DNA of 64,000 nucleotides. Source: Dipteris shenzhenensis (Eukaryota). Position numbers and translations under genes: made by a program. The notes beneath the pieces are model-generated. The model saw only the letters and a program-made list of their open reading frames with translations. It was not told the origin of the DNA and did not search any database. The stretch lies in NCBI GenBank assembly GCA_047967505.1, contig CM106538.1; one strand, written 5' to 3'. Positions within the stretch are counted from its first letter, which is position 1. Each line of letters starts with the position of its first letter. This document shows positions 6,701 to 64,000 of the stretch, piece by piece.

Positions 6701-7774
6701 TGGTATAAGAAGTTTGATGCTTTCATTCGGTCCCAGGGTTTTAGAAGGAGTGAAATTGATCACTGCCTCTACACTAAAAGGGCTAAGGATAATAGCCTGA
6801 TAATCTTGGCACTATATGTGGATGATATGCTATTGCCTAGCAAGAATACTTATGAGCTAGATGCATTAAAGGCCAAGTTGCATGAGGCCTTTGATATGAA
6901 GGATTTGGGACTTGCAGGTCATATTCTTGGTATGCGCATTACACGTGATTGGAGTAGGAAACTCCTTTGGCTTTCACAAAAAGAGTATGTTACAAAAGTA
7001 TTGCAGCGTTTCATTATGGAGGGGGGGAAGGCAGTGAGTACTTTATTGCCTCTATATGTGAAATTGAGTCATACAGATAGTCCCAAATCAGATGAGGAAA
7101 GGGCCATGATGGCCAAGGTTCCTTATGCATCAGTAGTTAGGAGTCTTATGTATGCTATGATAGCTACTAGACCAGACATTGCATTTGCAATGGGAGTTGT
7201 TAGCCGGTATATGGCTAATCCAGGAAAGAGGCATTGGGAGGCAGTTAAGTGCATCATGAGGTACATGAAGGGTACCAAGGAGATGTGCATTGGCTTTGGT
7301 AAAGGAGACATGCGTGTACTTGGGTACATAGATTCAGACTATGCAGGGCATGTGGATAGTAGGAGATCCACTTCTGGTTATGTGTTCACCTTTGCAGGTG
7401 GTGCAGTGTCGTGGATGTCTCGCGCACAGAAGTGTGTTGCTTTGTCTACCACAGAGGCTGAGTATGTTGCAGCCACAGAGGGTTGCAAGGAGGCTATATG
7501 GCTTGATCGGCTAGTGGGAGATTTGGGGATTCATACAGGTGTACCAACATTGCATAGTGATTCCATGAGTGCTATTCAACTAGCACGGAATCCGGTCTTT
7601 CATGCAAAGACCAAACACATTGAGGTCAGGTACCATTTCATCAGGGAGGTACTTGAGGACAAGCGCATAGAGCTTGTCAAGGTTCATACAGATGATAACC
7701 CTGCAGATATGCTGACGAAGAGTCTACCTAGTCAGCGGTTTGAGTATTGTCGTGTATTGATGGGCATTGGATAG
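3740..7774 (+). pseudogene. copia gag-pol, disrupted by stops and frameshifts
   Basis: Zinc knuckle CYHCGKKGHMKKDC, protease WILDSGASFH, integrase LVHSDVCGP/LRTDNGGEY, RT YKARLVAKGF/QMDVKTAFLHG/YVDDML, RNase H KHIEVRYHFIRE. TAG stops near 4348, 5369 and 6611. Confidence 0.96.
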
Positions 7775-19000: not shown

Positions 19001-19833
19001 ATTGGAGCATGTATGGAATCCTCTTTTTCTTGACATTTTCTATATCTCTTTGATTCAACCATTCCAAGCCTTGTCAACATAGTAGTTAATTGCTCCCAAC
19101 ATGTGGGAACAGTTATTCCATTTAGACTTCCATCCCATGTTTCTGGAAGTTGGACCAATAGTTTACTCAAACTTGATCTTTTTGCGCCTTCATGTGTTCT
19201 AGACCTAGGACCACCCATATCTCCAAATAGAATTTTAAGCATACTATCTTGAAACTCCACTAAAGCTTGATGTCCATCCCAAAGAGCTTGCAACTCAATC
19301 AATCTTTGTATGATTTTATCAGCGAGAGATAAATGGCTATCCTCTCCTAAAGCATCCATGTTATCCTCTTCATCATCCAACCTAGCGCCTTCATGCATAT
19401 CAGTAAATTCATCGTTCCCTTCCATCTGATGCATGGGCTCATTGTTCTCCTCTTCTTCAGGTCCACAAGAGCTGGAGTATGGAGCATGCAAACCAAGATT
19501 CTCTGCAATAGTTTCAAATCGCTCATCAACTTGCATATGCCTTGCATAAGTTGATGGAGCGACCAAGCGGCCACCATGGCAATAAGATTCACATCTACAC
19601 CATACCCGCCTCCGTCGATTAGATGATTCAATGAGTTCTTCATTCACTACAATATCATTGCCAATAGAGTTCTCCTCATTCACATTTCTCAAAATTGATG
19701 CGTGTAAGTTTCCAATGGAGTCTTGTTGCAAATGCACATAATACGTCCTCCGGCTCACATCTTGATAGCCAAGAGGCGAATGCCTGCACCTATAATTGCA
19801 TCTACATCTCCGTAGGCTATCATCTATTGCCAT
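16039..19833 (-). pseudogene. CACTA/EnSpm (Tnp2-like) transposase, nearly intact
   Basis: LLLHWDGFQ, FMKPLIDELESL, VTGDHPAQCKIG, YDCMHILALN, YKAEE, FWCYTYERMV. One in-frame TAG at 17376-17374. Intron donor at 18471; the expected acceptor before GDP reads CAT rather than CAG. Confidence 0.85.
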
Positions 19834-20615
19834 CTGGAATAAGGCACATGAAATCATAAATAAAACACCCTAGAGAACAAACACTTACATAAGCTCAACA
19901 AAGTCCATCACAAACATAGAGACATAGCATTTATAAACATGTATAAACACATTTAAAATAAACACACATAGTAGGGTCCTAAGTATGGGCAACTAGTGCC
20001 AGTCGTATAGACGGCCTCCCAACAAATATCATCAAAGTAGCCTCACCCATGGTAAAACCGTAGGTAAGCTGTTGTAGGCCATGCAAATGCACACCCTAGC
20101 AATGACTCCATGGATAAAGAAGGACTATACCTGTGAGATTTTGTCACTTCTGGTACTTAGCTCCCACACGTAGGACCATAGATACGTGTCTATCATTACA
20201 TAAAAATGAAACTTCCATATCATAAGCAAATAAAAGAAATATTGCCATACCATATAGACAAGGCATAAACCCACTGAACTAAAGAAGCACAAACAATGGC
20301 ATTCACATAGGCACAAACAATAACATAGACATATAGAAACACCAATACAAACATAGGCATAGACTATATAAACACCAATAGAAACGTATGCATAGACTAT
20401 AGCATAAAGCATAAAATTGCACTTAGAATTAGGCATATAGGCATTCACATAAGCATATAGACATATAGAAGCATAGACTAAAGAAGCATAGGCAAATAAG
20501 CATTCACATAAAGCATAGAAATAGGCATTCACATAGAAATGTAGCATAAATATCCAATTGCATAACATAAAGAGAAGGTGTGTGTCTACTACATTGTCTA
20601 ACATATTAAATCATA

Positions 20616-27660: not shown

Positions 27661-27899
27661 CTTGGGGGGGTCACCTCAAAGACCATTGGCACTCAAAAGG
27701 AGGGTATTTTAAAATTCCACTATTGGGAAAAATTTAACAGGATTACAAGAACACGAGGGGATTTTAATTCAACTTTAGAAGAACAATATGTTAGTTCATA
27801 AGTAAAGAGGGGTTGTTTTAGTGGGGAGAAAATTCAAGTTGATAAACACCCCTTCAATGCACGTGATACGTAGGGTTTCTTAGTAGTGCACCTCTTTAT
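27661..27899 (+). mobile_element. MITE, CT(C/T/A)GGGGG-end family, 8-bp TSD
   Basis: Reverse-complement homolog of 41990-42246; flanks AGATAAAT / ATATAAAT. Confidence 0.7.
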
Positions 27900-28339
27900 A
27901 TATAAATAGCTTGTAGGTGAGAGAGATGCACATCATAATAGAAAGCATGGATAGGCTATAGAATTTCAAGATAAAGATATATTACATGATGCAAAGACAA
28001 AGATTGAACAAAATGCTCTAAACCATGGGTTGGGTAGTATGGCAGAGTAGGAGTCACCAAGCACATTTCTTTGGATAGATTCCATAATCAACAATGTCAT
28101 GGTATAGTTTAATGAGATAAAGAACCATCACTTGCCATAGATCTTAGTGAAACAAAGATGCTAGCATGGGATAGAATCATGACTGAGTAGAAAAAACTAG
28201 TCATTTGATTAGATAAGAGGTACATGAAACTAGTCATTTGATTAGAGAAGAGGTACAACAGAGCTTGATCTCTTAGAATCCAATTCACATTTGCTTTTTT
28301 ATGTGCCATGTCGTCTAATTAATCTCTTATACATAAATA

Positions 28340-34879: not shown

Positions 34880-36899
34880 TTCGTTAGTGTGTACCTGTTC
34901 ACAATGCTTTGGAAGAACAAAGGTATCACTCTCATTGGTTTAGGCTCTAGTGGAGTCAATGCCAAAGAAACCACATTTGTCTCTCCTAACTATAGCATTG
35001 GGACCATTGTACATAGTTCTAAGCCATTTACATCAAGAATGAAAATACTAAAATTTTTAAAATCAACTTTGTAGATGTCACCTATGGTCCCACAATAATC
35101 TAGCTCTGTGAGGAGATAATATTGGTATCAGAAGCACTTGCTCGGCTATCTTGTACAAAGTTATCACAATTAATCACATGTTATTCTCCTTGAATCGATG
35201 TGTTCCACATGAAAATGCCATCCATGTGACCACAGTGCACTGTACTTTTTGTACTCCAAAAGAACATGACTAAAACAATGAGGATGCATTTTGTAATGAT
35301 TGTGATCATAAATAACTAAATTAAGTAGAAAGGTTAAAAACTTACATATGGCATACATCCAACTGCAAGCTCTTGATCGGTTATGTCCTCTCCATCATGT
35401 TCAGCTTCATGAAGTGCTTCTTGTATCTAATCATGGGACATGTGTTTGGGGAGAAGAGCAAGGTCCGATGGATATGGCACCTCCGCTTATGCATGACTCT
35501 AAATCTCACCCTCCCATTTATTCTTTTCACTTTGGTCTCTTCATATCTCTCCACCCATCATTGCATCTCAGGACTATTGAGGACACAAAACTTATTGAAT
35601 TTCTCTCTTTGCTCTTCGCTCATCTTTCTTTCAACCCCTTTACCTTGGGGAACCTCTGCAATGACACAATCATCATCCTTGATGTTCCAAGCATGAGGGA
35701 CATCAGGATCCATGGATGCAAGAAACTTTGTGATGCATACTTTGACTCTTGCACAAGCCATCCCTCCGCCATGCTTGATTTGGGTCTAGCTCTTTGCCTT
35801 ACAAATCCCTTTAAGGTTTTCATAAATCGTTCAACGAAATACATCCAACGACTATGAACGGTTCCTACAATGGCGACCTCATCAACTACATGTACTAGCA
35901 TGTGCACCTGAGTTGTCATAATGCTTGAGGGAAAGTGCTTCTCAAGGAGGCACATAGCTTCAATGGAGTCCACCTTAGCCCTCTTGATGCTCGATACATA
36001 AATCTCTTTTTGTGAGATCCACCTATTCCAATGCACTCGTAAGATTCAATATTTTATATCCTTCATTTAAAATTACATGATATATAACGAAGGTGATATG
36101 ATAGTAAGCATACCTGACAATGCTACTGATCATGTAGATAGCAGTCCTAACATCTTTTGATAAGCATCCTCTCACTATAATTGGGAGGATAAACTACCCA
36201 AGCAACAAAGGAGGGCCAACAATGTGTCACAATCATATAAGCTAATTACATGAAAGCATCAAAATCTTAGTTTTATATACTCTTCTTTCAAGCTAACATG
36301 TAGAATACCTGTAAGACCTTGTGCCAATCATGGGAATTGAGGCCACTAAGCTTATTGTCCCTTTTAAATGCTCCCCTCATGCAACGCACGTGTCTCATCT
36401 ATGTCTAAAAGGATGCAATATTTGCCTTGACCCTTGCCTCCTCTACTTTGGAAAGGATCCATGGTGCCTTTGGGAAAACAATTCGTGGAGGAAGCACGGG
36501 TTCTTGAACCACCCTCCTGAGTTGTATAACCATGCTCTTGAGTTCTACCCACATGCTCTTGGGGCCACAAGTGAGGCATCCTACCCAACTCGTGCAATTC
36601 TTCTCACACTCCCCTTGTGTCTTTGTCACCAACCAAGTGTGCCCAAATAGAAGCCCGCATATTCTTGAAGATATGCAAGGCATGGAAGAGGTATTGATTT
36701 GTAGCTCGCCCCAATATGGAAGCTCATTAAAGATTGACTTGCCAGAGTCCATAGTTGGAGGAGGCTCCTCACTATTATCTCTCCAATACCGAATCCGGTC
36801 ACTTGCCTTCCTACGGACCAATGGTGGATCAAGTTGACCTTCACATGTAGGATGATCAAGTGGAAGATATTGAGCATAAATTTCATAAACCATCTTCCT
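34880..36899 (-). pseudogene. Canonical plant CACTA Tnp2 transposase relic, 5'-truncated
   Basis: RKMVY...YLPLDHP, KSIFNELPYWGEL, MTTQVHMLVHVVDEV..VGTVHSRWMYFVERFMKTLKGFVRQRARP, YCGTIGDIYKVDF. Confidence 0.9.
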
Positions 36900-40375: not shown

Positions 40376-41107
40376 TCGAAATTTGAAATTCAAATTTCGA
40401 AAAGTGGCCCCCTCCCCTCATTGATGAGGGGAGAGGTGGGCTCAAATGTGGGCTTAACCCACCTAGGTTGGGCTGGTTGGCCCTCTTTGGGACCCTTCAA
40501 GCCCCTTGCATTAGCCCACTAAGCATTCCCTAATTCATTCCTTATGAGGCCCTTTTGAGACCCCAATTTTCCCCTAATGTATTTTTATTTGTTCGTGTAT
40601 GTGTTATATGCAGGTCCACATGATGCATGTAATGGTGTATGTTTGCCAAGGTAAGGAGCATAGGGCCACCCCCTTGGATGACTTCGTGGAGGATGGGGTC
40701 GGCACCATAGAATGGGTGTGCGATGCAAATGATATCCCCGTGCGAGTTATTGCTTAGCAATTGTGTATTAGCTTTGGCAAAGTTTGAAATACAAGCTGGG
40801 CTTGCATTGATTTTTAGTGTTATGGTAGGTGGCATGCAACACAAACAATTGTTTTGGATGAGGTTACTGTAGGACTACTCAGAAGATGGAGACACACTCC
40901 TTGATTGCAATGTAGGGTGCAGAGACTTAGTCGAACCTGCAGTGCAGAGACTTAGCCCACAAAGGGAGGGGAACCATGGTTTCTAAGAGGCAGAGTATGG
41001 ATTTGAGTTTGACATCTCCATGAATGTTTGTTGAAATTCAACTACATACAATTTGGTTTTTCCTTTATACAATATTGCACTTTTGTAATCTCATCGAGCT
41101 TGAACAG

Positions 41108-41520
41108 TTGCCTCCACCTTCGAGAGTTGGTGATTTTTTATTTGAATGGGGGCTTACTTCATAGGAGGCTAAAGACTCAGGGTACCTTGTCGGCCAAGGC
41201 ATTAGAGCTAGAGAACCACTTGGCCTTGTTAAGAGCTAGTGGCCGAGTTCCTCCATGAGGTTTGATGTGGCTATTTGGAGCTCAGTACAACATGACAATC
41301 TACAGAGATTATTGGTCCTGCTAAAGGGAGAATGTCACCAAGCGACTGGCTATCACATCCTTCTTTGTGTTTGAGTATAGCTAGGATAGATGTATGACAC
41401 AGGCCACATATGTAGGAAGAGGACAGGGGCATGCGAATCCTAAGTTTGGGAAGCACTTGGCCGACATCAATTGGCAACACTTTGACCCTTCGGCAATGTT
41501 GCTTGTGGATGATAAGGATG
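41108..41520 (+). pseudogene. FCP1/NIF-type (HAD family) phosphatase-like relic
   Basis: LVIFYLNGGLLHR (cf. LxLDLNGxLxxR), RFDVAIWSS...NL, FFVFEYS*DRC, HFDPSAMLLVDD in the canonical order, with frameshifts. Confidence 0.65.
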
Positions 41521-41989
41521 TTTTTATCAAAGCTATGCTTATATATATATTAATATAAAATCTTGGCAAAAGTTCTCAAGCTCATTTTTCAAGTTTCACA
41601 ATATTGGTAGAATGTAGTACTCTTTTATATATTTTCTTTTGAATTTTGAATGAAAAAGTGTAAATCCTGGCGAAACTTTAAAATTTCTTGCATAAAAGTT
41701 TCAAATCTTGGCGAATATTTCAAACATTTATTTTTATTAAGGCATACAAACTTTTGATGCCAATATAAAAGTTTAGCCTCTCAATGAAACTAACTTGAAA
41801 AAATCATCTATGGTGGATGACAATGTGAAAAAATAAGCATTATGAGAGGAGGAGCAATGCTTCTAGACATCTATTTTGCCTATGCCTCTTTGCATGACAT
41901 CTCCTCTAGCAATGATTTTTATCACCAATTGTTGTGTTTGCAGTTCTATGTCTTATTTCTAGTCGGGGATAGGCCAAGTGGGGCATATT

Positions 41990-42246
41990 CTAGGGGGATG
42001 CACTACTAATAAACCCTACATATCACGTGCATTCAAGGGGTATTTTTAAAATTCCTCAACTAAAATTTCCCCCCTAATAAAACCACCCCTCTTTATTTAT
42101 GGACTATGGAATTTTTAAAAATTTTGGATTAAAAAATCTCTCCTATAATTGTAATCTTGTTAAATTTTTCCTAATTGTCGAGTTAGAATACCCCTCCTCT
42201 TGAATGCACGTGGTACACTAAATTATTTTGAGGTAAACCCCTCGAG
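41990..42246 (-). mobile_element. MITE, CTAGGGGG/CTCGAGGG ends, perfect 8-bp TSD
   Basis: GGCATATT at 41982-41989 and 42247-42254; homologous to 27661-27899. Confidence 0.85.
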
Positions 42247-42509
42247 GGCATATTATGGAGAAGGATAAGACTTCACAAGAGGATAATTCTGAAGTGAAAA
42301 CTATGGACAACTCTACAAATTCATTCAAACTAAAGGTGGAAAGAACTCTCCAAAAGCAATAATCTCTCAACTACATTGCTAGATTGATCATAAATTTGTC
42401 TCTTTCTCCTATCGTTCATAAATATGGTTTGGTGGATAAGTTATGTTCTTATATGGTTTGGCATATAAGTCAGTCCTAAACCAAGGAAAATGTATTTCCT
42501 TCACTCTAA

Positions 42510-43210
42510 AATTAACCTAAAATTTGAACTAGACTAATTTAACTACTTTAAAACACATGAATTTCAACTACTGGGCTGGTCATTAATTATTTTTGTTCTG
42601 AAATATATTTTTGTTTTTAATTTCTATAAGTAGATGCTAACAAAAGTCAGACTAGGACAATCACAATAACATCAATTAAATTATATTTGCTACTATTAAA
42701 ACCACCTGGCAAGTTTTGAATTATCACAATGCAAGTCATCCCATGTATGACCCAAAACAACCTAGAAACTAAACTATTAAACTAATTTAAGTACTTGGAA
42801 ACACAAAAATTTCAACTATTGGGTTGGTTATCAATTATTTCGATTGCCACATGCTAGAATTTAACAGGTGGTACATGCAGACTTGTAATAATCATGGAGC
42901 TGAGAGCTCAAAATTTAAACTAATCCAATTTGACTACTCGTAAACTAAACTAGTTTAACTACTTGGAAACACAACACCACTAGGTGGTCATCAATTACCA
43001 CCATGTTAGCATTCAATAGGCACAAAACATGGAGACTTATAATATTGATGGAGTAGAGAGCTTAAAAATAAACTAAACTAATTTAACTACTCTTAAACTA
43101 AACCAATTAAACTACTTGGAAAAACAACACCATTGGATTGGTCATCAATTGCCAGCATGCTAGCATTCAATAGGCTAAACATAAGGACTTATATTAATGA
43201 TGGAGTGGAG
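42510..43210. repeat. Degenerate tandem repeats (AACTAAACTAATTTAACTACTTGGAAACAC...GGTCATCAATT)
   Basis: About four related blocks near 42525, 42765, 42940 and 43070. Confidence 0.7.
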
Positions 43211-43951
43211 AGAAAAATGTTGGTGTGGTAAGGATTAAGTGGCAGACAGAGACCTTGTGAAAATGAAGTGCCACGTTGGAAAATTTTCTTATGATGCCCC
43301 TTATGAAGTAACCAGGCAGCTAATTGGCTATTAATTTGATCAAAATACCTTAACTAGAAGGATGGCAAACTCATCGAGGTGGATTAGTGGGTATTAATTA
43401 TTGAAGTGCCATGTAGGCTCATCGACTTCACATTTCTCTACCCTTGTCTCCCACCCTCATCTCCACTACCTTTGTCGACTTCATACTAATCTACCCTCAT
43501 CAAATTCACATAACTCCACCCTTGTCTCTTGCTCCATTGTCTCCAACCTTCATCTCCACCTATGTTTTATTAATTTGAGTGTTTTTTTTAATTTGAAAAA
43601 ATTGCTAAAATACGCATTTTTTACGATTTAAAACGTTTCAATCTTTTTTTGCTATTTTATTCGTACACATAGGTTATTCATACAAATAACTCAGTTTATT
43701 CATACGAATAAACATAGTATAAACTTGCAACCACCATTGCTATTTTTGGCATTCAAATAAATAGATCCACCTGCCTTCCTTGTCACCTCAGCCACTTGCT
43801 TGCCAGCCCTGCTCCCTCTTACTTGCCTACCTACTACCTCCAGCTTGCTTCCATACCTACCACCTCTCTTCATAGGTATCTTACTGCACCCTTGCTTGTG
43901 TTGCAGTCTTTCATTAGTATTAATGTTTCTTTTGCTTTGTTTTGTTTAGGA

Positions 43952-44641
43952 CTAGCACTCATCTCTCTTAGGAGAGTTGTGTCTTGCAATCTTTTTAAAT
44001 TATTCAATATTTATTTTATATTGTATTTAAGTGTGTAGACAAGCTGGCACTTGTCTCTCTTGCGAGAGTTGTGTGTTGCATTCTGTTTTTGTTATGTGTT
44101 GCAATTTCAATTATAATATAAATAATTATTTTTTACTTGAGGCTGGCACTCATCTCTCTTAAGAGAGTTGTGTGTTGTAGTCTCAGTTTGTATAAAAATG
44201 TTTGTTTGTAGGGACTCTTGGGTTGGCACTCATCTCTCTTAAGAGAGTTGTGTGTTGCAGTCCAAGCTTAGTGATGTTTTCATAGATGCTTATTCTAGCA
44301 CTCATCTCTCCCTTGAGAGTTGTATGTTACAGTCTAAGTTTAGAGATGTTTTTAAGCACTTAGTCTGGCACTCAATTGTCCCTTGATAGTTGTGTGTTAC
44401 AGTCTAAGTTAGATATCATGCGACGTGCTCTTAGACACTTAGTCTGGCACTCAACTATCCTTTGATAGTTGTGTGTTGCAGTCTAAGTTAGATATCCTAC
44501 GATGTGCTCTTAGACACTTAGTCTAGCACTCAACTATCCCTTGATAGTTGTGTGTTGCAATCTAAGTTAAATATCATGTGATCTGCACTTAGACACTTAG
44601 TCTGGCACTCAACTATCCCTTGATAGTTGTGTGTTGTAGTT
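43952..44641 (+). repeat. Array of nine ~40-bp hairpin repeats with 30-59-bp spacers
   Basis: Units CT(G/A)GCACTCA-stem-loop-TTGTGTGTTGCAGTC start at 43952, 44044, 44143, 44223, 44295, 44365, 44444, 44523 and 44602. Confidence 0.92.
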
Positions 44642-44869
44642 GAAGCCTAGTGTTAGATGGTAAAGTCCACGATTAGGCTATACCTAGGTCATTTTTTGTG
44701 CAGGTTACACGCTTATTTTTTGTGTTTTGATTTTTTGTAGTCTGTTGAGAGGTTATATCTAGGTAATTTCTTAGAATGCTTGCATTGTTAATTGTTATGT
44801 CTTAATGAGTTTCTTATTGCACCTAGCACTGAATTCTTTTTTGAATTCTTTGTTGCAACTTACTGCATA

Positions 44870-45940
44870 TGAGATGGCTTGCGCAGGTGAGAAGAGGAAG
44901 TGTCAGCAACTTGATCTCACTAAGATTTAGAGGAAGGTGCTGAAAATTGAGAATGTAAACTTCTTAATGAATGTCAATCATGATGCGACAATTTTTTTTA
45001 AAAGATTGTTTCTATAGGTTTAGTATTGTTTAATTGTTTAATATTGTTTGTGGTTACAAATTAATTCTATCTTGTTGTCATTTTTTAGGTTAAGTATGAG
45101 CATGGAGGGAGAGAACTTAGAGAACATTCTCCCACACGATCCTTCCCCAACTAGAGCAACTTCCACTTCAAGAGGGCCCACAATGTGCTTTTCTACCTCA
45201 AGAAGCTAATTAAGCAGACCAGCTAAGTCACGCTGAGGCTCAAGCTATCTTATAGGCACAAAGAGAGATGTTGGGAAAACTTGAGGGGCTAGGTATTTTT
45301 GTTACTGGTTTAGTGGATGATGATACCATGCAAGGCGACCCGCTCTCTCTTCGACAAGTACAGAGACTATGTCCATCAAAGTTCGTAAGAAACACCTTGT
45401 TTCTTCGTTCAAGAAATGCTAGGAATAAATATGCATAGCCCAAGTTGTCAGACTTGCAGCACAAAAACCTAGCCCACATCCTTCTCCAGCGATTCATATA
45501 GGTGGAAGAGAGCATCCCTAACAAGCAGCAAATACCCATGTATTTCATTCAACAGGTGTATGTCTACAATGTCTTGCATCGACGTGTGGATTGCAATGAC
45601 AAGCATCACTTGTCAAGAATAGGAAAGGGATGTCCTGCAGAGTGCAAGTGAGCAAGGATAGAGAACAGAGAGCCCGTGTCTTAGAGACCTCATGTGCTAA
45701 CTCCCCAGGCACACAGTGATCTTGTTGACTTGGCCACATCTGCCATACCTCTCTGTCAACAAGGTGTTACTCTGCTGAGGAGTTACAAGAGCGCGTTGCA
45801 TCACAAGCCAAAGGGATCGAGGACTTGCAAGCATGTGTATAGACGTTCAAGACTAATCTTGCACGCTACAGACATACCTTTGGAGATTTGGATGCAACTG
45901 AGGGTACCGACATTTTTTATTTGGAGGACCTCACTAATAT
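44870..45940 (+). pseudogene. Degraded ORF of unknown function, convergent with the hAT transposase
   Basis: Acceptor ttttttag near 45089, then a long frame with scattered stops (AQREMLGKLEGLGIFVTGLVDD...IPMYFIQQVYVYNVLHRRVD). No domain recognised. Confidence 0.4.
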
Positions 45941-46126
45941 AGATTTGTAGGGTACAAGACCAAGCACTCAGGGAACAGTAGATGTGGATCCTATTGCATA
46001 ATTATGTACATTGTAAACTTCATATATAGCTTTGTAATACTCTTCTTCAAATATAATGATCTGGGTTAAGTGCATTTGTTTCATTGTACAATTTTATCAT
46101 CCTCCAACTTTTTATGCAATGATGGT

Positions 46127-46300
46127 TCGAGTGATATAAGTGATTTAAGTGGTTCAAGTGGACTAAGTGATATAAGCGATTTAAGTGATTTAAGCAACTT
46201 AAGTGACTTAAGTGGACTACGTGATTTAAGTGGACTAAGTGATTTAAGTGATTTAAGTGAACTAAGTGGCATAAGTGATTTAAGTGGACTCAGTGGATTA
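46127..46300. repeat. 9-bp minisatellite (AAGTGATTT / AAGTGGACT)
   Basis: About 19 degenerate units directly visible. Confidence 0.93.
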
Positions 46301-46725
46301 GGTCGACTTGTAAAGTTAATGCAGAAATATTGAAATATATCGATGTGAATTAGTGCACATGATAGCTAGATCAACCCTTGAGACTTGAAAATATAAACTT
46401 AGATTTTGCATAATTGATTATTCTTTCCAACTTTCCGATGTTGCCTTGAAAGTATTTGCAAATCACAAGGTTGGCTCTAGCTATTATGTATACCAAAATC
46501 ATCCACAATCTCGATAACTACAACACAACATTGCTTGTAGCCCACAAGGTTCTAGCTTTCAAGTACAAAAGGAGACGAGATGGATACATCGCTTGACATA
46601 TTCTCCCATCCATCTCCTCGCATACAACATTATACCCGATATAATTTAAGCTTCATCCACTGCTTCTATCACCTATCATATTCTTCTATCACTCTATATT
46701 GTATTCAACATAAGTACAATATCGT

Positions 46726-48540
46726 CTACCCTTTGACTTCACTATTGTCACTGAGTAGCTCAAGCTCATCTTCGTCTTCACTGAATGCACCCTCAGCCAC
46801 TAATTCTATAGTCAATCGTTGTCCAGCAATTCTCATTACAGCGGCTTCACTTGCTGCTTTAGCCATCGCAACATTGAATCCTTTCAACAATCGTAGATTT
46901 CCAAAGCAAAATACCAAATCTGCAGCTCTTCATGGCTTTAAGCGATTGCATCTCTTAGAATGAATAAAATCATATGCACTCCAATTTCGCTCACATGCAC
47001 CCAATGATGCAGCAACAGAGAGCACATGAGTTGCAACATGTTGCAACTCCAATGTCTCTCCACCATATTCCTTCCACCAAGTAGGTGACATCTTCTAATA
47101 CACTTTACCCATAACAAAGGCATCAGTGTTGACCATCCTTAACATTGTTACAAATGGCTCTACACCTTCTTTTATTCTTTCGACATTTTTTCAAAATAGA
47201 GATGATTGTACAAGATGCACACATTTAGAGCCTGGTATTGCATACTGCATCTTTTTCTCAAGCCAATTCACCCATCATCTATCAGCAATAGTCTCGACTA
47301 AAGCTTGATGCACTTCCAACAATCTAGCAAGAACTAGAAAAGAAGTGCCAAATCTAGTTTGACAAAATTGCATGAGTTGCTTCACAAAGTGCTCTCTAAA
47401 TACTACATGCAAGTATTGATGACTCTTTATAAAACTCACTACGACATTAGCATCTTGTAGTATTGATTGCACAAATGGGAATTGTCCAATACCCTTCAAC
47501 AATAAATTGAGAGTATGAGCACCACATGGCACCCATGTCAAAGTGGGATACTTTGCCATGACATCTCACCTGTGGTCTTGTAATTCGATGCATTATTTGT
47601 TACTAATGCAGTAACATTTTCACTGCCACTAACTTTATGAATTGTTCTTTCATATATTTTTACAATATATGTTGAAGTTTTTTCCTTTAGAGACATATCA
47701 ATACTCTCCAAAAACATAGTTCCCTTGGGAGTAATGCACATTACATTTATCAAGGGCCTAGCCTTCTTGCTAGTCCATCCATCAAAAGCAAGAGTGCATC
47801 CATATGTAGGAATAAAATCCAATATCTTTTTTTTCAAGAAATTTGCCACAGTTTGTTTGACTCTATCAAGATGATCTGTACGCATTTTATTATAATCCAG
47901 CAAATAAATCCTGGTTTAGCACATGATTTCAAGGCATTATGAAATGTCTCATCTCTCATGACATTGAATGGTATATCATTTTTGACAAATGCTTCATGAT
48001 TTCAAGGCATTACGAAATGTCTCCTCTCTCATGACATTGAATGGTATACCATTTTTAACAAATGCTTCGGTCCATCTTAAGTGCTCTTCATGCACTTGTT
48101 TGCTGAAGAAATCCATCCTCCATAGAAGATTATTCTCCCTTTTTTCTCTTCTTTACCTAACAGGCATTAGTCACATCAAAACTTACATGCAACCCGCTTG
48201 CTGGCAAATCTACATCACCTTCATGTACGGATACACTCCTTGCATTTATTGATGCTTCTCCTTCGACTGTCTCATCAACCTCAGCACTCACATCTTGTTG
48301 ATTTGGACAATTTCTTATCAAGGTCGGATTAACCACTTACTTCACTTTCTCTAAATACAATTTGCATAACAGAAGAACATCAGACGGCAGGCATGTGTAA
48401 GCTCCAACATCACTACCTATTGCTTGATGTGAGTAGAACTGCCTATGAACTTGTGCCCACAATATCTACACTCTAAGAAAGAGATCGATGCATGTACTTT
48501 TTGTATCTCCATCACATATGACCAAATCTTGCCATCCACC
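46726..48540 (-). pseudogene. hAT transposase (DUF659-type with dimerisation domain), frameshifted
   Basis: GCTLAFDGWTSKKARPLINVM, VTNNASNY, WVPCGAHTLNLLLKGI, TRFGTSFLVLARLL, CERNWSAYDFIHSKR...LVFCFGNLRLL. Confidence 0.92.
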
Positions 48541-48689
48541 ATGCTTTTAAAGTTGCCAAAAAAGAAAATGCAAAAAAATTAATTTGAGTATACAATAGAA
48601 ACATACTGCGATACACATTTTTTAAAAAAACAACACATATCCTTTAAAAAACACGTTCAAGCATGCAATATATTAATTGTCATTCATTC

Positions 48690-49100
48690 ATGCTCTATTA
48701 AAAGAATATGAAGTATTCATTCAAAAGAAACTGTAAGAATAAGTAATAAAAATTAAGACATTGATTCATTTCTATTGAAAGAATATACTCAAATTGAAAA
48801 TCATTCATTTACATTCTATTAAAAGAATATTATATATTCATTCAAAAGAAAGTGAAAGAATTGAGTAATGAAAAGAGATATGGTTTCATTTTTATTTGAA
48901 GAATACACTCAAATTGAAAATCATTCATTCACATTCTATTGAAAGAATATCAAATATTCATTCAAAAGAAAGTGTAAGAATTAGACAACTCTTCTAATAA
49001 CTTTTAAAACTTTCAATTCGCACACTTTAAAACTTTTTATTCTTTCACATTCTATTGAAAGAATATTAAATATTCATTCAAAGAAAGTGTGAGAATACAA
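48690..49100. repeat. AT-rich tandem repeats (CATTCTATTGAAAGAATAT...ATTCATTCAAAAGAAAGTG)
   Basis: About four copies at roughly 120-bp spacing. Confidence 0.8.
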
Positions 49101-49120
49101 ACACAAAATAAAATCATATT

Positions 49121-49745
49121 TCTCACAAGAGATCTAGGGAAATCAACGAGGAGATCCTAGAACTCCCACATACAAAATTCTCACAAGAGATCTAAGGAAC
49201 TCAACAAGGAGATCCTAGAACTCCCACAAACAAATTTCATAATTTTATAGACACAAAAACAAGCCCATTCCTCACAAGAGATCTAAGGAACTCAACAAGG
49301 AGATCCTAGAACTCCCACGTACAAAAATCTTATCAAAAGAGATCTAAGGAACTCACCAAGGAGATCCTAGAACTCCCACGTACAAAAATCTATCCAGATG
49401 AGATCTGAGAAACTCAACAAGGAGATCCTAGAACTCCCACAAATAGATTTCATAGAGACAAAAACAAGCACATTTCTCATAAGAGGTCTAAGGAACTAAA
49501 CAAGGAGATCCTCAAACTCCCACAAATAAATTTATCTCACAAGATATCTAAGGAACTCAACAAGGAGATCCTAGAACTCCCACAAACAAGTTTTAGACAC
49601 AAAAATATCTAAGACATTTTTCTCATAAGAGATTGAAGGAACTCAATAAAGAGAACCTAGAACTCCCACAAACAAAAGAACAAAGACCAAAACCAAAAAC
49701 CTCACAAGAGATCTTAGGAACTCAAAATGAGATCCTAAAGCTCCC
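49121..49745. repeat. Array of nine ~48-bp repeats with variable A-rich spacers, upstream of the hAT gene
   Basis: CTCACAAGAGATCTAAGGAACTCAACAAGGAGATCCTAGAACTCCCAC units separated by about 8-42 bp. Confidence 0.92.
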
Positions 49746-50079
49746 TAACAAAAAATCCATCTTATTTCAGACCTTCTAGATTTCTTTCACAACATTGAGG
49801 ACCTTTCTTCTCCTTTTCCTTGTTTGATCTCTTATGCTCGGCTGGGGAACCAAGTGTGAGATAAGAGACATTGGCAAACACTGAGCTTATATTGAGAAAC
49901 ACATCAACATATTCATTCTAATATAGGTTTATTTGTACGAATAAGTATTCGTACAAATAAAATTTATCCGTACGAATATGTAGGGATGACATGTCAATCG
50001 TACGAATATGTAGGGATGACATGTCGATTTCCTTCCCCTTAAGCTGGTCTATCATTGGAACAACAATCCTAGCATAATC

Positions 50080-57848: not shown

Positions 57849-60800
57849 ATGACCATGCTGACTGTGAATGCCACCGTTGTGATCCTCAAGGAGAGTTTGG
57901 TAGACCTTGGTATTCATGTGCTTTACAATTTCATGGGCAGTAAGATTAAGCTGCATCTCGTCAGTCTCGACATCGATCCAGGCAAGTTTGTGCATGGCGT
58001 CTCGGATGTTGTAAATTAAAATATAGAGATACTCTTTATCTGGAAAGCATAGGTTACTGCTCACCTTATCAATTGTTTGAAGACGTGGAACGAATTGTGT
58101 GCAGAGACACAAGAGGGCAAGCGCAGCGCAGAAACGGATTTGAAGATCTGGGGCTCGGATGGAAAGTCCCATCCTCATCCAAGCGATGACTTATACTCTT
58201 TTCTCGCCGTCACGTTCTCTATACCTACAGATTTCGGCAGACCCGGAGCCATCCTCGTGCTAAGCGAAGACTCCAACGAGTTTTTTCTTAAATCGATCAC
58301 CCTGGATCTGCCTGACGGCCAGGAAATATATTTTGCCTGCAATTCCTGGATAAACATCGCCAAGGCATACGAGGGGCCTCGCATATTCTTTGTCAACGAG
58401 GTTCACATCCCCAATGGTTTTGTTAAACGTTCCTTGTAGCTGAGGCCCAAGCTGATGCGTAAATTTCTCCGGGGTTGCAGCTTTTGTTTACTTTGGAGGT
58501 TACTTGCAGGCTTATCTTCCAAATCAGACACCGCTGGCGCTAGTAAAACTGCGACGCGATGAGCTTGTGAACTTGCGGGGAGATGGTAAGGGTGAAAGGC
58601 ATAGTAGCGAGCGAATCTACGATTACGATGTTTACAACGACCTGGGAAATCCAGACAACGGAGAGGAGGCTGCGAGACCTGTGCTCGGCGGGTCTAAGGA
58701 GCTTCCATATCCTAGAAGATGTCGGAGTGGACGCAAACCCACAAACTCAGGTATGCACATTGAACGAATATTTAATGGCAGAAGCCCATGTAACTGTTGA
58801 CGAAACTGTGTGCGCTTGTGCAGATCCTAACTCAGAGCGGCAGGGTTCCTTATATGTACCCCGAGACGAGCAATTCAGCCCTATGAAGTACCAGCAATTC
58901 ATAGCTGCTGGCATTAGATGCTTCAGACATGAGATTTCTACCATGATCCGGAATCTGTTGAGCCAGGCGAGTCATTTCAGCTTATTGGATGAGATTCATG
59001 ACCTCTATGTGGGATCCTTAAAGGAAGTGCGTCGAGAATTAGCAAACGCATGTGGGAACCCTGAAGATGGAACACTCATGGACTATCCACCACCCGCAGT
59101 AGTTCAAGGTAACAGCATGGTATCCGTTGTTCAGTGCATTCAAAAGCATCCTTGAGTCCCGATCCGGGGAAGACTGCTCAAATTGATCTATAAACTGTTG
59201 TGCTTGCAGCTGATAGAGAAGCCTGGAGGACCGACGAAGAGTTTGCACGTCAAAGGCTTGCTGGAATGAATCCGCTTGTGATTTCGAGACTGACGGTAAT
59301 GTTGGAATATAATCCTTGTAGTTTAATACATTAAACAATACAAACAGTTGACAGACCGACCCGAATTTTGACGACCGGCTCTCCATATGCTTCGGTCAGG
59401 TGTTCCCGCCTGTGAGCAAACTGGATCCTGAGGTCTATGGGCCATCTACATCGTCTCTTACAAAAGAGCATCTGGAAAACAACCTAGATGGCCTGACGGT
59501 AGAGGAGGTATCGTGGTCGCATACTTGGATTGATGAAAATTCAAAGCTACTGTTCACTTCGACCATCTACTCACTTTTGAAGATGTGAACACACAGGCAC
59601 TGCAGGAGAAGAGGCTTTATCTTCTCGATTACCATGATACTTATCTGCCATTCGTCGAGAAGATCAACGCTTTGAAGGCGAAAACGTACGCTTCTCGCAC
59701 AATATTCTTTCTAAGCAAAGTCGGTATTCTGAAACCCGTTGCCATAGAGCTCAGTCTACCTCCCAAGTGCAAAGGTGAAAAGTGTGAGACCAGAATTTTC
59801 AGGGCACCTCCTCCTGGCGTAATAGACTGGCTCTGGCGGTTGGCCAAAACCCATGTGGTCGTTGAAGACGTGGGATATCACGAGCTCTGTAGTCATTGGT
59901 AGTATCCTTCGTCTTTATCAAAGCTACTCGCGGCAGAAGTAGTGGCTCATATGTTTCTCATGAAGCTGGATTTTGATTGATGAAGTTTGTTTGTTTGTTG
60001 TATTACTACATGGAGTGGCTCATATGTTTCTCATGAAGGTGGATTTTGACTAATGAAGTTTGTTTGTTTGTTGTATTACTACATGGAGTAGGTTGCGAGC
60101 CCATGCTGCCATCGAGCCCTTCATCATAGCAACACACAGACAGCTGAGCGTCCTGCATCCTGTGCACGTATTACTGTCTCCTCACTTCAAGGATACAATG
60201 CACATCAACGCTTTGGCGAGGGCGAGTTTGATCGCTGCTGGAGGCTACATCGAAAAAACTTTCACTCCACGCAGATATTGCATGGAAATGTCATCAGTGC
60301 TGTACAAGAATTGGCGCTTCGATGAAGAATCTCTCCCTCGAGACTTGATCAAGAGGTCGTATCCTTGTGGCATACCTTCTCTAATGTTCCGAGACAGAGG
60401 GTCTAGTGATTTTAGTGTGGTGAGATCTGGCGGCTTCTGTGGTGATATTTTGATATCTTGATACAAGACTGAGGGAGATCTAGAGATTTTAGTGTGATCA
60501 CTTCTCTAATCATCAACAGTTTTAGTTAAAGAATTTGTTCTAGTGACTTTCATCAGATTATCCATTGAGTACTTGTGATTTTCATGAGATACGCGTTTGA
60601 TCAACAATATTTGGCATCTTAAGTTTTAAGAGATCGACACTGACGCAGTCGCGATGATTGTAGGGGAATGGCCGAGAGAGATGAGAAGGAACCGCACGGT
60701 TTGAAGCTGAACATCTCGGACTATCCATATGCAGTGGACGGGCTAGATCTATGGTGGGCAATAGAGTCCTGGGTGAAAGACTATGTGGGCATCTACTACA

Positions 60801-61426
60801 ACGATGACACGGCTATAAAATCAGATGAGGAGCTCCAAAATTGGTGGAAAGAGATCAAGGAAGTTGGGCATGGAGATCACAAGGATGCAAGTTGGTGGGT
60901 GGCCATGGACAAAGTGGAAGAATTGGAAGAAGTACTATCAACAGTGATATGGTTAGCCTCAGGACATCACGCAGCTGTAAACTTTGGGCAATACGCTTAT
61001 GCAGGTTTCATGCCAAATGCTCCAACTATTAGCCATAAACTCATTCCAGAGATAGGAAGCCAAGAGTATATGGAGATGTCCAAAGATCCAGAGAAATATT
61101 TTATGACCTGTTTGGCAACCAAAGGGGAGGCTATCTTAATAATGGCAGTAGGGGAGGTATTGTCTCAACACTTGGCGGGTGAGGAGTACATAGGGCAGAG
61201 AGAAGACCCCAAGTGGACTAGCAATGAGAAGGTGTTGGCTGCTTTTCAGGACTTTGGGAGGAAGGTAGAAATGGCTGAGGCTAAGATGGTGGCAAGAAAT
61301 GAGGTGCAGGACTCCCTCAAGCTTGCCCACCGTGTTGGTCCCGCTTTAGTACCCTATACCCTCCTCTGTCCCTCCTCTAGTCAGGGCCACACACTTAGAG
61401 GTGTCCCCAACAGTATCTCCATCTGA
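57849..61426 (+). CDS. LOX: Lipoxygenase, complete 9-exon gene (predicted 13S-LOX)
   Basis: Exons 57849-57981, 58105-58400, 58510-58750, 58824-59108, 59210-59295, 59400-59507, 59597-59898, 60092-60355, 60664-61426. PLAT domain, [52 protein letters not shown]. Start codon is the best guess. Confidence 0.95.
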
Positions 61427-64000
61427 CACCATGGTTTGTGTTTTTTCATGCTTTTTTTGAATATGGATATAGATATGTTTGTCCTATGTGATCAAGGGAA
61501 ACACTTTTAAATATGTAAATGTAACACACGGGTTTTTCAATAGTAAACACTTACTAAATTTTATAAAATATACTTTTGGAAGAGGGGCTCTTAATTGGGT
61601 AAGTCTATAAGCTTATATTTAAAAAGGGAATTTTTATAGCATTAACTTTTATAAAGCTATGAGACTATGATTTTGGGCATATCTTATGCATATCACTTTG
61701 GTTGCAATTGGAGCCATGTTTGCTTATTTGTGGTTTGCATTGGGTCGTAGTGGTTACTTTAGAGGTCATTTGGATGCATTGTGGTCCTTGTTGGATGTGT
61801 TGGTATGCCTAGATTGCCCTATGAGATGCTCTATTTTAATGAACACTTTGCACATGGATGCTATTCTATATTGAGGGATAGCTTTGACACATTGTAGTTG
61901 ATGTACTGATAATGCTATGGTATCTTGGATGAGATATTATTGATGCATATGGTCATGGATGGTCTTTATCCTTAAGGCATTTGGCACTTATTGACATTTG
62001 GATTTTCATTACAGTTGGCAATTTCTTTTGGGCTAGATTTGCTCATATGGATGCATATTATATGCACATGATTCGGTTGCATTTTAATGCTTTGAGCTTT
62101 GAGCTATTACTCTTGGGATAGGGACATTGGTATTTTGCAATACCTCTAATTTGAAACCACCCAAGGTTAACATGTCAACCTCTCCTTGTGTTATGTTGGT
62201 CCGTGTATCAATGGGCCACATAACTAGAAGTGTGGGGATTAGAGAGATATTGATATCCACTCTCCAAGTGTGTGTTTATGTAGCAAAACCACATCATCTA
62301 TGTTTGTGTAGCAAAACCACATCATCTGGGCTATTGGGCCATGATTAGGATGTTTTCTCAAGGAAAAGAAGTATGGTGAAACAATCCCTTCCTAGAATCA
62401 CAAAGTGGTTGGTTGCACTTGCCATTACGTGAGGTCCGCCCAAGACATTTCACACAGCTTCCCACATTTGTTCTTCTAATGGCCCAAATTGTTTGGTTCG
62501 CAACTCTCTCCACCACACATTACCTATCTTGCACAATAGATGTATTATTGCGATTCTCATCATTGATAGTGGTGCTAGCATGAGGTGTACTCACATTGTT
62601 AGGTGTAGTCACATTGACTCCCCTTGGAGGCTTGCATAATTTTGATCCATTGTTTTATAATTGTATTCAAAGAGATGGTTGCTTTCTTCATCAAAGTCAA
62701 TGATAGTCTCATCCTTATTCTTTGTCGGACAATCTCCCTATCACCCTCCAAATTGGTTCTCTTATGATACATAGGGCTTCCAGCAACATGGTTCTTCACT
62801 ATGCATATCACTTTAGATATAGCTTGTTTGATTTTGATGATGAGGATCTGTTTACTAAATTTTGCAAACTAGGGCCATGAGCTATTTGCTTTCCCCTTTT
62901 AAAGGCATGCATCTTAGCACTTTGAAGTACACCATTTGCCAAGTCAGTAATAGTAGCAATGATATAGGCTAATCTTTCCCTTGAATCCTTTAGCTACAAG
63001 CCAACTTCCATTCTTGCTCTCTAAAAGATCTCCACGAGGAGTGTTGGCTAAATTTTTGCTATTTATAATCTATGCAAAAAAAGAAAAGGTAATGAGGATG
63101 AGAAGGTTTCTCAAACGATTCAATGCATCAAGTTAAATCAATGTTCCAAATAGGAAAATTGGACATTCTACACACATGTATTCACCCCAATGCGTCATTC
63201 TTACAATCCACCAACTTAGCTAGCTATCCAAGTATGGAATTTTAGACTTCTTGACCTTCCTTGTCTTCCACCATTATTGGATATCCATTTATATCTCTTG
63301 GGCCTCGTCTCTTGTCCTTGGAGTTCTCCAAGAATCACATAAGTCTTTGTACTCTCTGTGGTACTCTTTTTGTGCTATGCAATAGTGTGGTGGTGGAGGC
63401 TTTGCTGCCAATGAACCAAACATGATCTCTCATGTCCAACCATAATATTATCAAAACCTCTATTAAATACATGGCAAACTTATCTTCAATTGGATTGAGC
63501 CTCATTTGCCATGAAACCAAAAAGACTTGCCTTCACATGCGTGGAGCACAAGATGAGGCTCATTCAACATCTCCCAAAAGATTATATGTGCATCTTTATC
63601 TTCCTCTTTCGTCTCACATGTTGCTATTGTTAGCAATTCCTGCAAGTTGGTCATGGAAAAGTTTCATGATTAGGAAGCACAAATTAATTGTTGAGCATAT
63701 CCAAATAGTAAGTTAGGATTATATATACATGGCAAGCAAGTTCTGAACATTTCTAAATGCATAGTAGACCTAGGATCATATACATGGCATGCTAGTGTTG
63801 TCCATCCAAGTATCCACTTTGGATGGTCAAACATGACCCAAGAATTTTTAAGATCTTTGTTTCCATCACAATTCATTTGCCTTACAAGGTTTACACCTAA
63901 AGTAGGTCCTTTTGTAGACATCTTGAATATGAAGCAACATTCTTCCTCAAATCCTTGCCTAGAAAAATGACTGCAATGGAAGAATTCATACATGGAGTTT
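60859..64000 (+). repeat. Segmental duplicate of 1-2131 plus 8003-9030
   Basis: Near-identical sequence; the copia is absent, with a single CTAAT at 62969-62973. Confidence 0.98.
62115..64000 (-). pseudogene. Mutator-like transposase relic, second copy (uninterrupted, runs off the window)
   Basis: Same WVMFDH...WTTLACHVYD and FMANEAQSN...FHWQQSL segments as copy 1. Confidence 0.65.

Follow-up and report, generated by a model that had tools for sequence, protein, structure and literature searches.

The 64,000-nucleotide stretch of Dipteris shenzhenensis DNA analyzed here (NCBI GenBank assembly GCA_047967505.1, contig CM106538.1), hereafter the window, contains an array of nine plus-strand repeat units spanning positions 43952-44642, located in the putative first intron of a decayed transposon of the hAT superfamily, each unit forming a hairpin of about 21 pairs over 52 nt. 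The pairing of these hairpins is maintained, either by selection or by a templated mutation process. Tentatively, and with less than even confidence, we read the units as folded nucleic-acid modules of the transposon, which may act, in the form of RNA hairpins, within the leader introns of its two pre-mRNAs. The array belongs with the internal repeat arrays of DNA transposons, its unusual aspect being conservation at the level of structure.

Nine repeat units share a conserved core

The original prediction, made from the sequence alone, described a nine-unit repeat/spacer array built on a core of ~40 bp, and nine plus-strand units with a conserved core of 41 nt are indeed present, far above chance. 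The 3' half of the core (18 nt, up to three mismatches) matches nine times in the 64-kb window, always inside the array, against 0.08 matches expected, and a degenerate 39-nt core matches seven of the nine units against none expected, U1 and U2 exceeding three mismatches. The cores start at 43952, 44044, 44143, 44223, 44295, 44365, 44444, 44523 and 44602, with start-to-start distances of 92, 99, 80, 72, 70, 79, 79 and 79 bp, such that a hairpin of ~52 nt recurs with a period of 70-99 bp. Tandem Repeats Finder detected only the youngest 3.6 copies (79-bp period, 90% matches), and the core pattern gave no matches in metagenome contigs and none in viral contigs.

All the loop variants previously listed (TTAG, TTGC, TTAA, CCTT and CTTT) were recovered and are given below unit by unit. 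The paired C:G to A:T change also holds, the central stem being CTCTC/GAGAG in U1-U5 and CTATC/GATAG in U7-U9, with TTGTC facing GATAG in U6 as a G.T intermediate. Counted from a 41-nt core, the spacers measure 51, 58, 39, 31, 29, 38, 38 and 38 nt. The first three agree with the 52, 59 and 40 bp previously counted, which fit a 40-nt core; described then as unrelated, they are so by our measure, identity among U1-U3 (0.47-0.59) being at the level of shuffled spacers (0.51 +/- 0.07), and the later ones are related to each other, as had been noted, with identities of 0.77 for U4-U5 and 0.84-0.92 for U6-U8. Core identity is 0.73-0.93 over all 36 unit pairs, and in the old units the cores are kept far better than the spacers.

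Spacer edges form a covarying outer helix

The division into repeats and spacers does not hold as first drawn: the spacer edges pair into a 6-bp outer helix that covaries and belongs to the same hairpin, and the central 5-bp stem is the tip of a 12-bp imperfect palindrome. From outside to inside, the module consists of the outer helix, a T.T mismatch, a CTG/CAG helix, a 2-nt bulge, a GCAC/GTGT helix, a second T.T mismatch, an 8-bp inner stem and the 4-nt loop. RNAalifold, run on the nine units, found the outer helix unprompted.

The 21-pair model was tested on a 65-column alignment of the nine units (A3), in which 88.4% of the 189 cells are paired, five of the 21 pairs (10 cells) having changed on both sides. 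The percentage paired, the number of cells with double changes, the number of pair types and the covariation score were each reached by none of 500 shuffles, and the number of pairs with a double change by 73 of 500, a control that overstates independence because the nine sequences are paralogues of one locus. Slid registers of the model are only 30-51% paired. Taken alone, the outer helix is paired in 83.3% of its 54 cells, which none of the 500 shuffles reached, and one of its positions reads UA in six units and AU, CG and GC in one each. Where the outer helix and one inner pair vary, they do so in complementary manner only. The core is conserved in its sequence: 22 columns of A3 are invariant, and the T.T mismatch between the GCAC/GTGT helix and the inner stem is kept in all nine units. 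The pairing of the 189 cells comprises 146 Watson-Crick pairs, 21 G.U and eight A.C. In a separate test of flank complementarity, matched flanks reached -3.79 kcal/mol versus -2.35 kcal/mol for mismatched ones, a difference equaled by 81 of 20000 permutations; partner ranks tie here because U6-U8 have common flanks.

In single-unit folding, z-scores lie between -4.4 and -4.8 for U3, U6, U7 and U8, and are weaker for U9 (-2.45) and U4 (-1.75). A covariance model built from the nine window units (R1) gave its top match, 87.1 bits, to U7. The units and their marginal relatives are as follows, with minimum free energy (MFE) in kcal/mol.

43895-43909, plus strand: partial unit consisting of just the core's 3' half (CTTGTGTTGCAGTCT), which differs at two positions from the 15-nt 3' core word; missed by the covariance model
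43945-43996, plus strand: U1, loop TTAG, weak hairpin; MFE -11.5, z -0.41; covariance model 64.4 bits
44037-44088, plus strand: U2, loop TTGC; two wobble pairs arise from a CA to TG change of the 5' arm; MFE -14.3, z -0.11
44136-44187, plus strand: U3, loop TTAA; an outer-helix G-C where other units have U-A; MFE -23.7, z -4.39
44216-44267, plus strand: U4, loop TTAA; an outer-helix G-C where other units have A-U; MFE -21.9, z -1.75
44288-44339, plus strand: U5, loop CCTT; G to A disrupts one pair; MFE -16.1, z -1.40
44358-44409, plus strand: U6, loop CCTT; inner stem CAATTGTC/GATAGTTG with two wobble pairs; MFE -22.1, z -4.52
44437-44488, plus strand: U7, loop CTTT; perfect 8-bp inner stem CAACTATC/GATAGTTG; MFE -24.4, z -4.77
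44516-44567, plus strand: U8, loop CCTT; MFE -21.2, z -4.77
44595-44646, plus strand: U9, loop CCTT; 3' outer flank replaced at the array end; MFE -20.8, z -2.45
44823-44858, plus strand: possible degenerate tenth unit, a weak R1 match (15.4 bits, E 0.23) with core-like ends and GAATTC...GAATTC where the inner stem would be

The array lies in a decayed hAT element

The nine units make up the left-hand internal array of a decayed transposon of the hAT superfamily, ~6.5 kb long (roughly 43.6-50.0 kb), which formerly held two convergent gene units, one for an accessory protein of ~250 aa on the plus strand and one for the transposase on the minus strand. The link to a neighboring hAT element that had been proposed is thus borne out, since the array, the open reading frame (ORF) relic and the transposase are assigned to one element on account of homologous family proteins and inverted subterminal blocks. 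From left to right, the element comprises a subterminal block, a CT-rich leader, the putative array-bearing intron, the broken accessory ORF, a microsatellite and the convergent transposase relic, followed by tandem arrays at 48635-48982 and 49093-49756 and by the matching subterminal block. Its parts are:

43654-43689: left subterminal block with a TATTCGTAC-type motif, a 36-nt inverted match to 49929-49963
43770-43875, plus strand: putative CT-rich leader exon, read from the sequence, with TATAAAC at 43718-43724 upstream and the donor CATAG/GTATCT at 43876
43876-45088, plus strand: putative leader intron with the whole array; its TTTTTTAG acceptor would end at 45088, before ATGs at 45096 and 45102
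45214-45950, plus strand: broken accessory ORF with four in-frame stops and a frameshift near 45700
46130-46286: 9-bp microsatellite AGTGATTTA
46726-48542, minus strand: hAT transposase relic with stops and frameshifts, Pfam DUF659 at 47275-47915
49093-49756, minus strand: right-hand array of nine ~60-bp units in the presumed transposase-gene leader, in which alternating GAGTTC/GATCTC words fold into hairpins
49929-50006: right subterminal block with GTACGAA motifs, an inverted match to the left block

The assignment to hAT follows from transposase catalytic and dimerization-type regions together with repeated motifs in both subterminal regions. DUF659 matches cover 47541-47915 (E 4e-24) and 47278-47565, a C-terminal WWKEYGG...ERNWSAYD stretch resembles a dimerization region and an N-terminal stretch resembles a zinc finger, both as read from the sequence, and the relic is 61% identical over 112 aa to the intact transposase of the relative described below. 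Five of the six copies of TTCGTAC/GTACGAA in the window lie in the two subterminal blocks (43660; 49935-50000).

The placement of the array in the apparent leader or intron of a plus-strand ORF relic also stands, the ORF relic being real and the leader intron a putative one, read from sequence signals. The accessory frame (45256-45942) has four stops in 229 codons, and when read through with X it aligns to an intact 247-aa protein (P0001) with 42% identity over 153 columns (E 8e-27). The family comprises 15 proteins at E <= 0.001, of ~250-290 aa and with a mean column identity of 53%, sharing the invariant motif PNNNQ.AIYF.QQC, a stretch of basic character (PPRKRP) and, toward the C terminus, a long helix (H186-214). 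It matches no Pfam domain, and a cluster look-up gave no name; in viral contigs none of 90 pattern matches was confirmed, and in the open-access papers searched, DUF659 and hAT returned nothing on accessory genes. The best score of its structural model against the ESM Atlas, 0.77, is uninformative, and across six read-through frames of 40500-46400 Pfam gave no credible domain. The product appears to be a transposon-borne protein. Since the ORFs of the window copy are broken, its array is probably without function now, and the copy is probably a fossil.

The right-hand array has, on the minus strand, MFE values of -15.0 to -19.1 kcal/mol with z-scores of -0.6 to -3.1. A second array in the presumed transposase leader, at 48635-48982, has three units of ~120 bp with AATTTGAGT words, which also occur at 43567-43598. 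The AGTGATTTA microsatellite has a relative in an 8-bp ATTAAGTG array of L001 (L001:3122-3322); the word is near-identical in the two elements and the arrays lie on opposite sides of the accessory ORF. A search of the window for terminal inverted repeats (TIRs) with an 8-bp target-site duplication gave one weak match in an implausible place, the copy being degraded. The Ac-like TAGGGATGACA at 49981 and 50011 was rejected as the right end because its orientation is wrong and it sits inside a 30-bp direct duplication (49969-50026), which holds the word twice, adjoins the right subterminal block and points outward; this duplication could be the end of another hAT fragment.

An intact relative carries analogous arrays at both ends

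Two further loci, L001 and L002, came from a scan of metagenome contigs with the accessory-family alignment. L001 is a complete-looking hAT element of 7862 bp with its three main ORFs open, the 13-nt terminus TCTAAGTTGCATT at both ends without a matching 8-bp duplication, and ACG-rich subterminal motifs at its tips. Its convergent transposase of 716 aa contains DUF659 (1.8e-39) and Dimer_Tnp_hAT (2.1e-08), and the accessory proteins of the two diverged elements, that of the window and L001, are 42-62% identical. The leader repeats the order seen in the window, with a TATA-like CTATAATAT, a CT-rich stretch and a TTTAG/GTAATT donor, and the L001 and L002 ORFs likewise begin directly after an acceptor. 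Between the leader intron and the accessory ORF, both loci carry a kinase ORF (Pfam Pkinase, E 1.2e-13; L001:1471-2991 and L002:1-950), for which the window copy has no room, ~350 bp separating its array from its ORF.

L001 holds 15 hairpin units of the form TTGTGT(T)AGAG-loop-CTCACACTT, a tally from motif searches (11 by one regular expression, four by another) that motif-less units would escape. Seven plus-strand units (572-1348) lie on the left between the donor at 447/448 and the acceptor before the kinase ATG (~1586), and eight inverted units (6743-7360) lie on the right between the transposase ATG region and a donor-like site near 7447, at 436-1195 bp from the left terminus and 365-980 bp from the right one. 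Every unit, whether in the window or on either side of L001, falls between donor and acceptor signals as read by eye.

Because the MAFFT alignment of these units (A5) misplaced the loop gaps, inner-stem pairs were anchored on the invariant GA...TC. At the two variable inner-stem positions, 27 of 30 cells pair across the 15 units, which none of 20000 shuffles reached, and when each distinct stem type is entered once the figure is 13 of 16, equaled in 99 of 20000 shuffles. Stem types comprise GACC/GGTC, GACT/AGTC, GAGG/CCTC, GAGA/TCTC and GAGT/ACTC, with one mismatch in each of three units, and the distance from arm to arm ranges from 7 to 14 nt. The 12-nt flanks are different in every unit and complementary within each, matched flank duplexes reaching -5.76 kcal/mol versus -2.34 (sd 2.04) for mismatched ones (0 of 20000 permutations), with the unit's own partner ranking first in 10 of the 15. 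Whole stems amount to 15-18 pairs. The arm order of the core differs, the CA-rich arm coming first in the window and the GT-rich arm in L001. The window and L001 arrays are positional and architectural analogues.

L001 also has perfectly palindromic 16-bp repeats of the TTTTCGATCGAAAA type, four or five per end (249-333, 7530-7589), between the ACG-rich tip and the TATA-like word, and Rfam matches on L001 fall on these repeats only, all below the gathering score. Neither this palindrome nor the L001 terminus was found near the window element.

Folded single strands, duplex sites or templated repeats

In both diverged elements, and at either end of L001, core sequences are conserved, the helices inside and around them vary yet remain complementary, and mismatches and bulge keep their places. 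Since the helices differ from unit to unit and the arm spacing in L001 is variable, a folded single strand, rather than a dimer site in duplex DNA, would be the likeliest object of selection, and since all units lie between putative first-intron signals of inward-facing gene units, RNA hairpins in leader introns are our first choice. On this view the modules would work in folded, single-stranded form; their conserved core would be recognized as a bulged stem by a factor that the element or the host supplies, and one signal could thereby couple the expression or splicing of both genes. Concerted evolution was discarded as an explanation, as it would homogenize whole units, unlike the conserved core with varying helices seen here. 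A bolder version, in which this hAT lineage would possess its own RNA-protein control, with intronic bulged hairpins read by the ~250-aa coiled-coil accessory protein and setting splicing, export or escape from silencing for both transcripts, strikes us as unlikely on present sequence evidence.

Several observations weigh against reading the units as selected RNA hairpins. U1 (z -0.41), U2 (-0.11) and U5 (-1.40) fold no better than their shuffles, and pairing is mostly Watson-Crick, with 12 G.U against eight A.C once the invariant G.U column is set aside. The young U6-U8 cores (0.88-0.93) diverge no slower than their spacers (0.84-0.92); divergence of cores at the pace of spacers, which had been named beforehand as telling against selection, is therefore seen in the young units and not in the old ones. 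Pattern and covariance-model searches found no further copy of the core on either strand of the 64-kb window. The core of the right array differs from that of the left, and R1 has no match there; in L001, L002 and the right array together it gave nothing below E 2, and the L001-type motif is absent from the window, so that the modules of the two elements are analogous, not alignable. The comparison covers two elements only, and the exon and intron signals in the window were read by eye, by analogy with L001 and L002. Raw folding energy favors the sense strand in 13 of 15 L001 units, eight of nine left units and all nine right units, but this advantage vanishes in composition-corrected z-scores and hence reflects richness in T and G; flank complementarity is equally significant on the antisense strand, and strand bias was accordingly dropped as a test for RNA, neither the z-scores nor the antisense controls showing a difference. 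Finally, the accessory protein has no recognizable nucleic-acid-binding fold (AlphaFold2 mean pLDDT 64), and its model has no match in the PDB at E <= 0.001 (Foldseek).

The strongest competitor, in our view doubtful but to be taken seriously, is that the units may be cis elements read as duplex DNA during transposition, in which the core would supply imperfect inverted half-sites for the transposase (BED-type) or for the coiled-coil accessory protein, the arrays at the ends would aid synapsis or enhance transposition, and the complementary flanks would be a by-product of template switching. In L001 the core stands at either end, inverted, as is classic for repeats bound by a transposase, and it is the core sequence itself, not pairing alone, that is conserved (the 22 invariant A3 columns); the invariant T.T can equally be read as a fixed asymmetry between half-sites, the predominance of Watson-Crick pairing is strand-symmetric, and the PPRKRP stretch and long C-terminal helix of the accessory protein would fit a nuclear dimer. 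Besides, the 5' core word TGGCAC resembles the CGGCAC subterminal repeat of the maize hAT element TCUP (accessible part of PMC3355664). Yet one protein could not read outer helices that are unit-specific and nevertheless complementary, nor does a dimer site sit easily with an arm-to-arm distance that varies by 7 nt in L001. The ~52-nt units lie beyond the ~250 bp usually required in cis, the two window arrays have no common core, and short ACG-type motif clusters, placed where binding sites are expected, already exist at the tips of both elements. Subterminal repeats are moreover usually 5-12 bp long, according to the accessible text of PMC3355664, which cites Kunze and Weil 2002. A classical transposase-binding subterminal repeat was set aside for the window array on its size (41-nt core) and its presence at one end only, presence at both ends being seen in L001.

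A neutral alternative, which we hold to be improbable, is that the array is a quasi-palindromic minisatellite in which template switching recopies one arm onto the other and extends the arms into the flanks in the absence of selection. What is accessible of Monttinen and Loytynoja 2022 (PMC8794818) reports perfect stems arising in one event, multibase compensatory changes and the fixing of existing stems, a process also treated in the accessible part of Loytynoja and Goldman 2017 (PMC5453318), and from yeast DNA under high transcription, mutations at quasi-palindromes have been reported that lengthen the identity between the arms (PMC3820800, accessible part). The inner stem of U7-U9 fits one such event: after a G to T change in the 3' arm, GATAGTTG would have been copied to the 5' arm, converting CATCTCTC into CAACTATC, which makes the T to A and C to A changes of the 5' arm together and removes a T.T mismatch. 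In the same direction point the death of the window copy, the equal divergence of core and spacer in young units and the abundance of tandem arrays among the window's transposons. Template switching leaves unexplained, in turn, why cores are conserved across old units whose spacers are at shuffle level and why L001 keeps 15 units of one core at both ends, all with different flanks; arm-copying should also erase T.T mismatches and the bulge, yet the inner T.T is invariant in nine of nine units, and both diverged elements keep such arrays in the same place. As for the claim that selection acts on the palindrome, the paired changes stand, with a level of pairing that none of 500 shuffles reached; against selection as the sole reading speak template switching, which can yield the same paired changes (PMC8794818, in its accessible part), and the U6-U8 cores, which diverge no slower than their spacers.

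Far less probable still is that the units are polycistronic small-RNA precursors, miRNA-like or siRNA, which a Dicer-like enzyme would cut from the intron for self-regulation or for targeting host silencing genes. Paralogous miRNA hairpins likewise combine a core duplex that is conserved with lower stems that vary yet stay paired and with loops that vary, the location would be intronic with all units on the same strand, and neighboring units can pair with each other (28 nt, 86% complementarity); transposon-borne miRNAs do exist, an example being miR820 in rice CACTA elements. Plant DCL1 processing, for its part, uses a lower stem beyond the 21-nt duplex, and the ~21 pairs of the window units and 15-18 of those in L001 are too short for a 21-nt duplex plus lower stem. 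There was no complementary target within the window and no Rfam match in it at the gathering score, and at E <= 10 a search of 43600-45200 gave only sub-threshold matches of miRNA models on pairs of units, the best being MIR828 with 23.4 bits versus a gathering score of 69. A plant miRNA precursor was rejected on stem length and Rfam scores.

Other classes were dismissed more directly: Helitron 3'-end arrays, because the bases after the hairpin are not consistently CTRR (CTTT, CTGT, CTCA, CCAA, CTAA) and belong to the outer helix, with no Rep or helicase domain in 40.5-46.4 kb; CACTA subterminal repeats, because 42001-47437 has no CACTA-type terminus except the end of a miniature inverted-repeat transposable element (MITE), and the CACTA-type domains (17.4-18.4 kb and 35.6-36.0 kb) lie outside the bounds of the element; a small nucleolar RNA cluster, because no C/D or H/ACA boxes were seen by eye and Rfam gave no match; and a CRISPR-like array, because the spacer edges belong to the hairpin.

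Relation to known systems

The subterminal repeats of Ac are AAACGG hexamers, and those of Hermes are bound by BED domains (accessible part of PMC10368747). Like hAT subterminal repeats in general, the units described here are repeated motifs inside a hAT element near both ends, in opposite orientation (L001), with plausible protein contacts. Known subterminal repeats measure 5-12 bp, stay within a few hundred bp of the element's termini and are recognized in duplex form, whereas the present units are ~52-nt hairpins with a period of 62-99 bp, lie 0.35-1.2 kb from the ends and conserve complementarity; they are located downstream of a putative promoter and leader exon, the ordinary ACG-type motifs occurring separately at the tips. 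In En/Spm, a CACTA element, 12-bp motifs partly arranged as inverted dimers are bound by the accessory protein TnpA. The likeness lies in an accessory protein besides the transposase and in repeated inverted motifs around the promoter or leader at both ends; the superfamily is another one, the motif is far shorter, the arm spacing in L001 is variable, and TnpA sites are not known to have covarying helices. The end regions of Tam3, a plant hAT element, are reportedly rich in inverted repeats able to form stem-loops (Yamashita and colleagues, 1999, Genetics 153:1899); that work is not known to describe a family of conserved-core modules, a covariation analysis or intron placement for Tam3, although the overlap may be larger.

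Template-switch hairpins resemble the array in that the U7-U9 inner stem fits a one-step origin; the papers on them, in their accessible parts, describe a mutation process and not a repeated module with a conserved core and fixed mismatches and bulge at both ends of an element. With plant miRNA clusters and Rfam RNAs the array shares tandem hairpins on one strand, a conserved duplex, variable loops and covarying closing stems, from which its short stems and the lack of a match at the gathering score set it apart. Galileo and Foldback have long TIRs with internal tandem repeats and multiple transposase sites (PMC3688188 and PMC4168063, both in their accessible parts), and they too carry tandem repeats in the end regions of a DNA transposon, mirrored at both ends. 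They belong to the P superfamily and their repeats lie within long TIRs, where a THAP domain binds them in duplex form; here there are no long TIRs, the two window arrays differ, and so do the leaders of L001.

Repeat arrays of DNA transposons are commonly classed as sites for the transposase or as junk minisatellites, and two diverged members of one hAT lineage keep hairpin arrays at the same place. In the open-access papers searched, hairpin modules with a conserved core are nowhere described for hAT leader introns, and short words of the core sequence returned unrelated papers only. If the pairing is selected, the noncoding part of a cut-and-paste transposon would here offer one of the rare cases in which structure is conserved, and an uncharacterized accessory family would gain a directly testable candidate ligand; if the RNA-protein control outlined above were also true, the units would form a family of structured cis-RNA modules in a cut-and-paste DNA transposon. 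Were the pairing unselected, the array would be a clear natural example of template switching that makes and maintains hairpins in tandem repeats, and a caution against taking compensatory change among paralogous palindromes as proof of function.

Other features of the window

The window is plant-like and transposon-rich, with two lipoxygenase genes, a copia element, CACTA-type domains, a gypsy reverse transcriptase and hAT DUF659. Just outside the left end of the hAT element lies a 154-bp tandem repeat (42873-43212; 2.2 copies, 82% matches) with 25-bp sub-repeats. Further left, a MITE-like element of ~240 bp (42001-42240) starts with CACTACTAATAAACCCTAC and has inverted arms at 42021-42040 and 42196-42215, and a counterpart of its terminus occurs in opposite orientation at 27881-27903. 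Pieces of a CACTA-type transposase are on the minus strand, Transposase_21 at 17377-18393 (region 16042-19869), adjoined by ORFs of 339-491 aa, and DUF4218 at 35623-36045. The lipoxygenase genes (2-565 and 58053-61423) are a tandem duplication whose copies, ~61 kb apart, enclose every transposon of the window, and the flanks of this duplication are 97-99% identical (1-2131 versus 60859-62973).

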